From NCBI RefSeq assembly GCF_003334405.1, contig NZ_QOWM01000017.1: DNA of 64,000 nt. One strand, 5' to 3'. This document shows positions 20,572-26,571 of the stretch, one piece after another (within the stretch, counting starts at the first letter, position 1; the number at the start of each line of letters is the position of its first letter). A program made the position numbers and the translations under genes. This DNA comes from Escherichia coli. Lineage in GTDB: Bacteria > Pseudomonadota > Gammaproteobacteria > Enterobacterales > Enterobacteriaceae. Below the pieces are notes generated by a model. That model was not told where the DNA came from. It did not search any database and saw only the letters and a program-made list of their open reading frames with translations.

Positions 20572-21936
20572 TCAAATTACCGCCCATACGCACCAGGTAA
20601 TTAAGAATCCGGTAAAACCGAGAATGGTCGTTAACACTGTCCAGGTTTTCAGACCGTCTGCTACCGATAACCCCAGATATTTGGTCACAATCCAGAACCC
20701 TGAGTCATTAATATGTGACGCACCAAGCCCACCAAAGCAGGCTGCCAGCGTCACCAATACGCACTGAATCGGATTCAATCCCATCACCGCTTCTGAGAGT
20801 AACCCGCCGGTTGTCAGTATTGCTACGGTTGCTGACCCCTGCGATGCACGCAGCGCCAGTGAAATAATAAATGCGGCTGGTAACAGAGGCAGGTCAATCA
20901 TTTGTAGCATGTTGGCAAGGGCTTTGCCGACGCCCGATTCCACCAGCACTTTGCCAAATACCCCTCCAGCACCAGTAACCAAAATCACTACCGCCGCAGT
21001 AGGAAGCGCTGAGCCCATAATGTCGCTGGTGTGTTGTAAGCTCCAGCCGCGACGTAAAGCCAATAACCAGAATGCCAGCACCAGCGCAATCATTAGAGCT
21101 ACCATTGGTGAGCCGATCAGCTGTAGCGTACCAAGCAGGGGATGCGAAGGCGGCATCAGTGTTGCGGAAACCGTACCCGCCATGATAATCGCGATAGGAA
21201 TAACAATTAGCGAGGTGACCAGCGCGACGCCCGGTGGATTTATTTTATCGCTTAATTTTGTCGCGCCTTCCTCACTGGCCGGAGCCAGTTGCATCTGTTC
21301 CAGTACTTCTACTGACATCGCATATTGGCGCTTATTGATTATTTTCGCTGCAAAGTAGCCAACAACCCCTACGGGAATAGAAATCGCAATACCGATGATG
21401 GTTAGCCAGCCGATGTCTGCGTGGAGTAACCCCGCTGCGGCGACAGGGCCTGGATGCGGCGGTACCGCCACGTGAACAGTGAGCATGATCCCAGCGACAG
21501 GCAGGCCAAATTTGAGTGGCGATATTTTGGCAACCTTGGCAAAACCGTAAATGATTGGCGCAAGAATAATAAAGCCGACATCAAAGAAGACGGGAATACC
21601 GAGGAAGAACGCTGCCAGAGTCAGCGCAGCGATAGTTCGTTTGTCACCTAACTTGCGACTGAAATAATTAGCCAGTGACTCTGCACCACCAGAGTGTTCG
21701 ATCATACGCCCCAGCATAGCGCCCAGACCAATAATAATAGTGACGGAACCAAGCACACCGCCCATCCCGGCGATCATCACTTTACCCACTTCGCCCGCCG
21801 GTATACCCGCCGCAAGTGCGACTAACAGGCTGACGAGGAGCAGAGCAACGAATGGTTGTACCTTTGCCTTGATGACCAGCAGCAACAGCATGATTACGCC
21901 AGTTAACGCAATGCATAACAATGTAATTGTGGACAT
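20572..21936 (-). CDS. ygbN: GntP-family acid-sugar permease
   Basis: 454-aa polytopic membrane ORF; synteny. Confidence 0.9.
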   Translation of the reverse strand: MSTITLLCIALTGVIMLLLLVIKAKVQPFVALLLVSLLVALAAGIPAGEVGKVMIAGMGGVLGSVTIIIGLGAMLGRMIEHSGGAESLANYFSRKLGDKRTIAALTLAAFFLGIPVFFDVGFIILAPIIYGFAKVAKISPLKFGLPVAGIMLTVHVAVPPHPGPVAAAGLLHADIGWLTIIGIAISIPVGVVGYFAAKIINKRQYAMSVEVLEQMQLAPASEEGATKLSDKINPPGVALVTSLIVIPIAIIMAGTVSATLMPPSHPLLGTLQLIGSPMVALMIALVLAFWLLALRRGWSLQHTSDIMGSALPTAAVVILVTGAGGVFGKVLVESGVGKALANMLQMIDLPLLPAAFIISLALRASQGSATVAILTTGGLLSEAVMGLNPIQCVLVTLAACFGGLGASHINDSGFWIVTKYLGLSVADGLKTWTVLTTILGFTGFLITWCVWAVI

Positions 21937-22024
21937 GGGAAACCCTGTCTGAAAGTTATAGTTAACCTACCCCATCCGTAGATGGGGGGATGTATGGGTA
22001 CGTTGTAATTAGGGATTTAACGAA

Positions 22025-22801
22025 TTAGCGCCAGGCGTCAAACCAGCCAAGCCCTTCTTCGGTGAGGCCACGAGGTTTATATTCACAACCGATCCAGCCC
22101 TGATATCCCACCTCATCGAACAGGCGGAACAGCCACGGATAGTTGATTTCTCCATCGTCCGGTTCATGTCGATCAGGTAGTCCGGCAATTTGTACGTGCG
22201 CATATTTCCCGGCGTAGTCGCGGATTAAATGCGTCAGGTTGCCATCTACTTTTTGCGCATGAAAAGTATCTAGTTGAATAAACACGTTATCTCGCGCAAC
22301 TTCTTCAACAATAGCCAGTGCCTGATACTGGCTGGAGAAGAGATAATGAGGCTTAACGCCGGGGCTGAGTGCTTCAACTAATATTCGCTTGCCGTGTGGC
22401 GCAAAGCGGTCGGCAGCGTAGCGGAGATTATCGATAAATACTGCCCGGTACCGTTCAGCATCTTCGCCAGCGGGCACGACGCCTGCCATCACATGGACTT
22501 GTTCACAATTGAGCGCCAATGCATATTCCAGTGCCAGGTCGATGTCTGCGTGTGCTTCGTGCTCACGTCCGGGAAGGGCGGATAATCCCCATTCCCCCGC
22601 ATTAATATCTCCGGGAGCGGTATTGAACAGCGCCAGTGTCAGATGGTTTTGCTCCAGTTGCTTTTGGATTTGCAGGGTGGAGTAGTCATAGGGAAACAGA
22701 AATTCCACAGCATCGAACCCGGCTTTTCGCGCTGCGGCGAAGCGTTCAATAAAAGGCACTTCGGTGAACATCATGGATAAATTAGCTGCAAAACGAGGCA
22801 T
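22025..22801 (-). CDS. ygbM: Hydroxypyruvate-isomerase-like TIM-barrel enzyme (2-oxo-tetronate isomerase, OtnI)
   Basis: 258-aa ORF; synteny in the ygbI-N cluster. Confidence 0.85.
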
Positions 22802-22805
22802 TGCA

Positions 22806-24703: not shown

Positions 24704-25608
24704 GATTTCGCTCCCGGTAGAGTGATGCCAGAGAAAATCTTGATAACTGCGCTATCGTCTTCTTTCCCGTAACCCGCGTTACTGGCGCTGGTGAACATAT
24801 TCAATGCTGTTGAGGCCAATGGCAGCGGGAAGTGCAGGGCTTTGGCTGTATCGGCAACCAGACCAAGATCCTTAACAAAAATATCGACGGCTGAATGCGG
24901 GGTGTAATCGCCATCCACCACATGACGCATCCGGTTTTCGAACATCCAGGAATTTCCGGCGGCATTGGTCACGACGTCATACATCACATCCAGCGGGATC
25001 CCCGCACGGGCTGCAAGTGCCATCGCTTCGGCTCCGGCAGCAATATGTACGCCCGCTAACAACTGGTGAATAATTTTTACGGTCGAACCTAGTCCCGGTT
25101 CTGCACCTATGCGATAAACTTTTCCGGCAACGGCTTCCAGCACGGGTGCCAGTCGTTCAAAGGCAATATCGCTACCGGAGGCCATGATAGTCATTTCACC
25201 GTTAGCGGCTTTTACTGCACCACCAGAAACTGGCGCATCCAGCATTTCCAGATCGAATCCAGCCAGAGCGGTAGCAATTTCTTGCGCATCAGCACTAGCG
25301 ATAGTGGAAGAAACCATTACTGCCGTACCGGGTTTCAGATGTTGTGCAACGCCTGTTTCACCAAACAGCACCTGTTTAACCTGGGCCGCATTGACCACCA
25401 GCACCAGCAGTGCGTCCAGTTTTTCGGCAAACGTCGCGGCGTTATCAGAAACCCCGCAAGCACCTGCCTCTTTCAACGTAGCGCAGGCATTGCTGTTCAG
25501 GTCTGCGCCCCAGGTAGAAAGACCTGCGCGGACACATGACAGTGCTGCTCCCATTCCCATTGACCCTAAGCCAACGATACCGACATGAAACTCAGATCCC
25601 GTTTTCAT
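24700..25608 (-). CDS. ygbJ: NAD-dependent 3-hydroxyisobutyrate-dehydrogenase-like enzyme (L-threonate dehydrogenase, LtnD)
   Basis: 302 aa; Rossmann motif GIVGLGSMGMGAA. Confidence 0.85.
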   Translation of the reverse strand: MKTGSEFHVGIVGLGSMGMGAALSCVRAGLSTWGADLNSNACATLKEAGACGVSDNAATFAEKLDALLVLVVNAAQVKQVLFGETGVAQHLKPGTAVMVSSTIASADAQEIATALAGFDLEMLDAPVSGGAVKAANGEMTIMASGSDIAFERLAPVLEAVAGKVYRIGAEPGLGSTVKIIHQLLAGVHIAAGAEAMALAARAGIPLDVMYDVVTNAAGNSWMFENRMRHVVDGDYTPHSAVDIFVKDLGLVADTAKALHFPLPLASTALNMFTSASNAGYGKEDDSAVIKIFSGITLPGAKS

Positions 25609-25803
25609 CTGCTCTCCTTGTTAATTTAAGTGATATTTTGTTTGATATTGTGAATATAAGCGCTGGAAGATAACGATATGGTGATCTGATTCACATAAAT
25701 TAACATTGTGTGTTATTTTATGTGAACTAAGCGTTAGTTGCGCCGCGCACGTTTCGCAGGCAAATAGCGTAGAATGTCAGCAGGACAAAGGAAGGAGCAA
25801 AAG

Positions 25804-26571
25804 TTGATACCCGTAGAGCGTCGCCAAATCATCCTTGAGATGGTAGCTGAAAAAGGCATTGTCAGTATTGCTGAACTAACGGACAGAATGAATGTGTCAC
25901 ATATGACCATTCGTCGGGATTTACAAAAACTGGAGCAGCAGGGAGCCGTTGTGCTGGTGTCCGGAGGCGTCCAGTCTCCGGGACGCGTGGCGCATGAACC
26001 TTCTCATCAGGTAAAAACTGCGCTGGCAATGACGCAAAAAGCGGCTATTGGCAAGCTGGCGGCAAGTCTTGTTCAGCCGGGAAGTTGTATCTATCTGGAT
26101 GCGGGAACGACCACGTTAGCGATAGCACAGCATCTGATTCACATGGAGTCACTGACTGTGGTCACAAACGATTTCGTTATTGCGGACTACTTGCTCGACA
26201 ACAGTAATTGCACAATTATTCACACTGGCGGTGCAGTGTGTCGGGAAAACCGTTCCTGTGTCGGGGAAGCCGCTGCGACCATGCTGCGCAGCCTGATGAT
26301 TGATCAGGCTTTTATTTCTGCATCGTCATGGAGTGTGCGGGGGATTTCTACGCCAGCGGAAGATAAAGTCACGGTGAAACGGGCGATTGCCAGTGCCAGC
26401 CGCCAGCGAGTTTTGGTCTGTGATGCGACGAAATATGGTCAGGTGGCGACATGGCTGGCGTTACCATTAAGCGAGTTTGATCAGATTATTACAGACGACG
26501 GTTTGCCGGAGAGTGCCAGTCGCGCGCTGGTGAAGCAGGATCTCTCTTTGCTGGTAGCGAAAAATGAATAA
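25804..26571 (+). CDS. ygbI: DeoR-family transcriptional regulator
   Basis: Probable TTG start at 25804 preceded by GGAAGGAG; helix-turn-helix SIAELTDRMNVSHMTIRRDL; 255 aa (ORF track extends to ATG 25774). Confidence 0.8.
   Translation: MIPVERRQIILEMVAEKGIVSIAELTDRMNVSHMTIRRDLQKLEQQGAVVLVSGGVQSPGRVAHEPSHQVKTALAMTQKAAIGKLAASLVQPGSCIYLDAGTTTLAIAQHLIHMESLTVVTNDFVIADYLLDNSNCTIIHTGGAVCRENRSCVGEAAATMLRSLMIDQAFISASSWSVRGISTPAEDKVTVKRAIASASRQRVLVCDATKYGQVATWLALPLSEFDQIITDDGLPESASRALVKQDLSLLVAKNE

Follow-up and report, generated by a model that had tools for sequence, protein, structure and literature searches.

What do the six genes between rpoS and mutS in this stretch of Escherichia coli DNA encode, and where does the protein that regulates them begin? 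The stretch, referred to below as the window, comprises 64,000 nucleotides (nt) of contig NZ_QOWM01000017.1 (assembly GCF_003334405.1), and the segment in question, positions 20572-26571, carries ygbI and, divergent from it, ygbJKLMN. With a probability of roughly 0.9, we regard this segment as the ordinary, already annotated E. coli ygbI/ygbJKLMN locus, situated in the rpoS-mutS interval, a variable region. RefSeq and papers published between 2009 and 2021 already contain the cluster, the predicted pathway, the repressor and the TTG start codon of the repressor gene; with its central points already known, the locus has little discovery value.

The list of open reading frames (ORFs) for positions 19500-28000 gave six ORFs in the segment, five of them on the minus strand (ygbN, ygbM, ygbL, ygbK, ygbJ) and one, ygbI, on the plus strand, at exactly the coordinates reported in an earlier reading made from the sequence alone (the sequence-only reading). 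Families were assigned by running NCBIfam equivalog profiles with curated cut-offs on all six proteins. On the minus strand, ygbN (20572-21936) encodes a GntP-family permease of 454 residues (NF007332, 827 bits, cut-off 524, profile positions 1-454 of 454); ygbM, or otnI (22025-22801), a TIM-barrel 2-oxo-tetronate isomerase of 258 residues (NF043033, 396 bits, cut-off 325, 1-258 of 258); ygbL, or otnC (22806-23444), a 3-oxo-tetronate 4-phosphate decarboxylase of the class II aldolase fold with 212 residues (NF043034, 335 bits, cut-off 250, 2-205 of 205); ygbK, or otnK (23441-24703), a DUF1537-family 3-oxo-tetronate kinase of 420 residues (NF043035, 598 bits, cut-off 350, 1-417 of 418); and ygbJ, or ltnD (24700-25608), a HIBADH-type L-threonate 2-dehydrogenase of 302 residues (NF043037, 474 bits, cut-off 350, 3-296 of 297). 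On the plus strand, ygbI (25804-26571, TTG start) encodes a DeoR-family repressor of 255 residues (NF040890, 484 bits, cut-off 400, 1-253 of 253, aligned from residue 1). That all ORFs are full length, as had been claimed, is borne out by these end-to-end matches and by the 421-residue Salmonella YgbK homologue of PDB entry 3DQQ, and the claimed combination of a divergent DeoR-type regulator with a gene set for four-carbon acid sugars holds, each enzyme scoring above its equivalog cut-off.

The specificity of these assignments was judged against neighbouring families. For YgbJ, models of related reductases, tartronate semialdehyde reductase included, stayed below their cut-offs; for YgbL, fuculose-phosphate aldolase models were far below theirs; and for YgbM, hydroxypyruvate isomerase models matched, again below cut-off. 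YgbM also matched the solved structure of E. coli YgbM (1K77, 1.3e-178, residues 1-258), and YgbK aligned from end to end with 3DQQ, 1YZY and 5DMH, three structures of DUF1537 proteins, including a C-terminal PGVPW...ALKSGNFG segment; its orthologues have the domains PF07005 and PF17042. In RefSeq, the annotation pipeline PGAP names the YgbM product (22025-22801; 3954-4730 in retrieved locus L001) 'HPr family phosphocarrier protein', via NCBIfam NF007441. Given that YgbM is the TIM-barrel of 1K77 and scores above cut-off as a 2-oxo-tetronate isomerase, the product name is apparently wrong and has spread to thousands of genomes.

The gene set resembles the four-step pathway of Zhang et al. 2016, with a dehydrogenase, an isomerase, a DUF1537 kinase and a decarboxylase of the class II aldolase fold leading to dihydroxyacetone phosphate. 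As summarized in PMC12994016, which cites that work, L-threonate or D-erythronate is oxidized to 2-oxo-tetronate, which is converted by OtnI to 3-oxo-tetronate, phosphorylated by OtnK and turned into dihydroxyacetone phosphate by OtnC. For the window, YgbN would import L-threonate, judging from its family membership; YgbJ (LtnD) would oxidize it to 2-oxo-tetronate; YgbM (OtnI) would convert this to 3-oxo-tetronate; YgbK (OtnK) would phosphorylate the latter at C4 at the expense of ATP; and YgbL (OtnC) would decarboxylate the YgbK product to dihydroxyacetone phosphate. The assignment of L-threonate as the substrate is thus a prediction from the family equivalog models, by which LtnD, OtnI, OtnK and OtnC, the set that defines the L-threonate branch, are all present and adjacent.

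The sequence-only reading had compared the architecture to that described for L-threonate/D-erythronate catabolism. The L-threonate part is supported, with LtnD present; the inclusion of D-erythronate proved too broad, as no gene for the D-erythronate dehydrogenase DenD (NF043036) was found in 20572-26571, and the gap between ygbM and ygbN measures only 88 nt. With DenD missing from the cluster, the L-threonate branch alone is predicted; compared to the pathway of Zhang et al. 2016, the E. coli cluster has only the L-threonate entry enzyme. In the Salmonella enterica cluster, ltnD-otnK-otnC-otnI-denD-permease, the four enzymes are likewise present and identically ordered, ygbI is divergent, and TTG stands at the same codon. 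Unlike in E. coli, a further gene, whose product passes as a D-erythronate dehydrogenase (NF043036, 451 bits, cut-off 325), is placed between otnI and the permease gene in Salmonella; the Salmonella GntP permease is more distant (498 residues), and the flanking genes differ. The gene order of the window recurs in Salmonella, Serratia and Pectobacterium.

For the start of ygbI, two codons come into consideration, ATG 25774-25776 and TTG 25804-25806. Counted from the ATG, the ORF spans 25774-26571 (+) and encodes 265 residues. The TTG is preceded at a spacing of 6 nt by a Shine-Dalgarno sequence, GGAAGGAG (25790-25797, +), for which the duplex with the 3' end of 16S rRNA was calculated at -8.0 kcal/mol, as compared to -2.6 kcal/mol ahead of the ATG and a mean background of -2.7 kcal/mol across the window; ACAAAGGAAGGAG is invariant across Escherichia and Entomohabitans. 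By 5' rapid amplification of cDNA ends (5' RACE), Mendoza-Vargas et al. 2009 placed the 5' end of the ygbI transcript at +9 of the then-annotated ATG; they observed that YgbI orthologues are 10 residues shorter, and from the corrected start codon they counted 21 nt back to the transcript start (PMC2760140). The promoter is listed there as 'atagCGTAGAATgtca', assigned to sigma-70 (Table 2 and supplement), with 'CGTAGAAT' given as the -10 element. By coordinate arithmetic, the published transcription start falls at 25783 (+) of the window. The -10 hexamer TAGAAT occupies 25770-25775 (+), holding the A and the T of ATG 25774 as its last two bases; it is kept in E. albertii and Entomohabitans and reads TAAAAT in Salmonella. 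As the mRNA begins at about 25783, downstream of ATG 25774, the transcript detected by 5' RACE cannot contain this ATG.

Orthologue DNA for comparison was obtained by a protein-homologue search, followed by retrieval of the contigs encoding the homologues. The codon equivalent to 25804 is TTG in E. albertii, where the upstream ATG is kept, in Entomohabitans teleogrylli, where the ATG has become ATT while TAGAAT and ACAAAGGAAGGAG are kept, and in Salmonella, which has an in-frame TAA stop five codons upstream. It is GTG in Serratia and Yersinia, both with no upstream in-frame start, and in Pectobacterium, where the sole upstream in-frame start is a GTG 23 codons away. Among 120 database homologues, 106 showed the I-P-x-E-R motif near the N-terminus, and 101 of these 106 begin M/V-I-P-x-E-R, in further support of the TTG. 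The NCBIfam YgbI profile likewise begins at the residue encoded by this TTG, and the next in-frame ATG, codon 13, already lies within the stretch covered by the profile. RefSeq annotates ygbI with 768 nt and 255 residues in strain FORC 064 (WP_001300386.1; locus position 7733, equivalent to window position 25804) and, from a TTG start and likewise with 255 residues, in MG1655 (NP_417215.2, a revised version). The TTG start proposed earlier is thus correct, with 5' RACE, cross-genus comparison, anti-Shine-Dalgarno pairing and profile start in agreement; it is not new, having been published in 2009 and used in the current RefSeq annotation.

Translation from ATG 25774, which yields the 265-residue product of the original K-12 annotation, is by comparison hardly credible. 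In its favour, ATG is a stronger start codon than TTG, and this one is in frame, with no earlier start between it and the preceding stop; E. albertii retains it, and the long form of YgbI occurs in a few database entries, such as the partial entry P0018. These points are met by the mapped transcript start downstream of the ATG and the inclusion of the ATG in the -10 hexamer, by pairing upstream of it that does not exceed background, by its loss in Entomohabitans and the stop upstream of the TTG in Salmonella, and by the family profile and the revised RefSeq start. A promoter-like site at 25690-25719 (+), returned by the promoter scan, could in principle give a longer mRNA that includes the ATG; a minor 265-residue isoform made from this putative promoter is hypothetical, and nothing supports it. 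We therefore retain the TTG as the start: a weak sigma-70 promoter, whose -10 box swallows the ATG, drives ygbI, and translation begins at TTG 25804, which follows a strong Shine-Dalgarno sequence.

Of the equivalog models, YgbI passes none but its own, those for AgaR, GlpR and SrlR being far below cut-off, and precomputed Pfam annotation of 98-99% identical cluster representatives and of orthologues gives the domains HTH_DeoR (PF08220) and DeoRC (PF00455). In this domain composition, in its divergence from the operon that it controls and in having several operator sites, here candidate ones, it is like the DeoR/GlpR-family repressors AgaR, SrlR, GlpR and DeoR. In K-12, Gao et al. 2021 found a single YgbI site by chromatin immunoprecipitation with exonuclease digestion (ChIP-exo), located between ygbI and ygbJ, and de-repression of ygbJKLMN upon ygbI deletion by RNA sequencing (PMC8464067).

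The 195-nt spacer between ygbI and ygbJ contains a repeated 15-nt motif, TGTTAATTTAWGTGA, in three to four copies, which is likely the YgbI operator, judging from its arrangement and conservation. Two candidate sites lie proximal to ygbJ (25619-25653), TGTTAATTTAAGTGA at 25619-25633 and, as a weaker copy, TGTTTGATATTGTGA at 25639-25653, 20 nt apart from start to start; two further candidates form a palindromic pair (25690-25726), TGTTAATTTATGTGA at 25691-25705 on the minus strand and TGTTATTTTATGTGA at 25711-25725 on the plus strand. The arms of the palindrome measure 16 nt (25690-25705 and 25711-25726), are 94% complementary and are 5 nt apart. Allowing up to two mismatches, TGTTAATTTATGTGA has three matches in the 64 kb, all of them in the spacer, where 0.07 would be expected. 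The copies thus form two pairs, with a spacing of 20 nt within each pair and 72 nt between them, and copies stand at corresponding positions in E. albertii, Salmonella, Serratia and Pectobacterium; in the Salmonella enterica cluster, all four operator-like motifs are found at matching positions. Two pairs of sites 72 nt apart would suit a looping tetramer, and this geometry suggests that a YgbI tetramer may loop the DNA across the ygbJ promoter. The promoter scan gave no minus-strand site of sigma-70 consensus type for ygbJ; AAGGAG stands 5 nt ahead of the ygbJ ATG, with a calculated anti-Shine-Dalgarno pairing of -8.5 kcal/mol.

The copy number of YgbI, as quoted in PMC7567609, is 2-6 per cell, which fits a weak promoter and a conserved non-AUG start. 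The non-AUG codon at the 25804-equivalent position, be it TTG or GTG, is kept across Enterobacterales and probably helps to hold YgbI at few copies per cell. In Yersinia pseudotuberculosis, a YgbI orthologue of 62% identity with a GTG start (L010, 8001-8771) has operator-like motifs upstream and no adjoining ygbJKLMN.

Several observations weigh against this account of the locus as a YgbI-controlled L-threonate operon with a TTG-initiated repressor. The ChIP-exo peak, 2859304-2859334 in NC_000913.2, falls by our own conversion (offset about 1977) at approximately 25727-25757 of the window and so adjoins the palindrome instead of lying on it; part of the converted peak coincides with the -35 region of the promoter of ygbI. 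The promoter-like site at 25690-25719 counts on the same side for the start codon, and ribosome-profiling or N-terminal peptide evidence for YgbI was not found in the part of the literature mentioning ygbI that was covered. With respect to the substrate, the literature search gave no assay of the E. coli cluster enzymes, and the growth phenotypes reported for E. coli concern tartrate only, not threonate (PMC8464067, PMC6452873).

These phenotypes are the basis for an alternative in which the physiological substrate is L- or meso-tartrate or another acid and the threonate names have been over-transferred from other species. Deletion of ygbI in K-12 allows growth on L-tartrate (PMC8464067), and in lines evolved on meso-tartrate Guzman et al. 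2019 found that ygbI mutations, accompanied by raised ygbJKLMN expression, had arisen twice (PMC6452873); the sub-threshold matches of YgbJ and YgbM to tartronate semialdehyde reductase and hydroxypyruvate isomerase models point in the same direction. The four enzymes nevertheless score above the cut-offs of their own equivalog models and below those of neighbouring families, the tartrate study's authors themselves regard the activity as promiscuous and in need of more experiments (PMC6452873), and the experiments were carried out in K-12, where ygbK is truncated, and thus did not probe the intact pathway. We consider this alternative unlikely and keep L-threonate as the predicted substrate.

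The window comes from a non-K-12 E. coli, and the truncation of ygbK sets K-12 apart from it. The locus is otherwise like that of E. coli K-12 MG1655 (b2735-b2740) in its genes, their order and strands, the spacer and the annotated ygbI TTG, with 17 substitutions and one indel over 8.4 kb. The indel is a run of five C at window position 23552, which in K-12 is shortened to four by a 1-bp deletion; this shifts the frame of ygbK at codon 385 and results in a product of 388 residues (9336-10502 in the MG1655 locus, L002), as opposed to 420 in the window. Lost with it is the PGVPW...ALKSGNFG tail, which is conserved in the three solved homologues. The truncation also leaves a gap of 91 nt between ygbK and ygbL, which led to the operon being split in databases, whereas in the window the two genes overlap by 4 nt. 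The exact K-12 ygbK allele was found in 370 genomes, the matches listed being all K-12-derived laboratory strains. The word 'intact', used for the cluster in the sequence-only reading, therefore marks a real distinction, with ygbK of full length here and frameshifted in K-12, and the frameshift is not mentioned in the ygbK-naming literature that was searched.

The tartrate phenotypes in the literature therefore come from a strain whose kinase is truncated. K-12, the reference for functional work on the ygb locus, has to be used with caution on this account: the window shows the ancestral, intact operon, and conclusions on substrate (tartrate or threonate) and operon structure that are based on K-12 may not transfer to natural isolates. 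From this, a joint and distinctly tentative proposal can be made. Strains with intact ygbK would use L-threonate once repression by YgbI is relieved, and K-12 would not, due to a frameshift specific to its lineage; the tartrate phenotypes of K-12 and the division of the operon into ygbJK and ygbLM in RegulonDB would be artefacts of the broken allele; and the conserved non-AUG start together with four TGTTAATTTAWGTGA sites would constitute a looped, autoregulated circuit of very low copy number.

The distribution of the cluster among strains bears on a further alternative, namely that it represents an accessory island in decay, dispensable and currently without function in this strain. The rpoS-mutS interval (20479-27383 of the window) is polymorphic; rpoS borders the cluster upstream, and pphB and mutS follow downstream. 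The cluster was matched in 4603 out of 5426 complete E. coli genomes, in 4577 along 80% or more of its length, and gave no match in 823. In O157:H7 ATCC 43889, it is replaced by genes for a MarR regulator and for the hydroxyarylic acid decarboxylase subunits B, C and D, and in E. coli ML35 (L012, 2435-5914), ygbL is interrupted by a 2.8-kb insertion between two IS1 copies, carrying a gene of the CDP-glycerol glycerophosphotransferase family; these two cases and the K-12 frameshift would speak for decay. In the window, though, each ORF is intact and matched end to end by its profile, the 6000 bases of the cluster recur with 100% identity in many complete E. coli genomes and thus in many independent isolates, and the candidate operator, the promoter and the Shine-Dalgarno sequence are retained in other genera. 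Decay is accordingly a fitting description of other strains and not of this window, for which we hold it to be very improbable, and the intact operon remains the reading of choice. Salmonella has both sets, the ygb-type genes and the MarR/hydroxyarylic acid decarboxylase genes.

Adjacent to the cluster, rpoS (19486-20478) carries a change of GAG to TAG at codon 217 (20134-20136), which cuts RpoS short, with the loss of part of region 3 and the whole of region 4; the nonsense codon is the sole difference from FORC 064 over 8.4 kb. The same 61-mer of rpoS was found in one of 5407 complete genomes, that of O157:H7 ATCC 43889, where the gene is annotated with 'internal stop'. As ATCC 43889 lacks the ygb cluster, the window is not from that strain despite the shared nonsense codon, and the change arose independently in the two strains. 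Elsewhere in the window, a CRISPR (clustered regularly interspaced short palindromic repeats) array, whose repeat, GTGTTCCCCGCGCCAGCGGGGATAAACCG, is that of the E. coli type I-E system, occupies approximately 8331-9275, downstream of a run of plus-strand ORFs (259-7945) that we assume to be cas genes. A scan of the whole window against Rfam at gathering threshold gave no match. The spacer between ygbM and ygbN (21937-22024) holds a CCCCATC/GATGGGG hairpin without a T run, and that between rpoS and ygbN (20479-20571) holds two hairpins, the second of which is flanked by A and T runs and would suit a bidirectional terminator.

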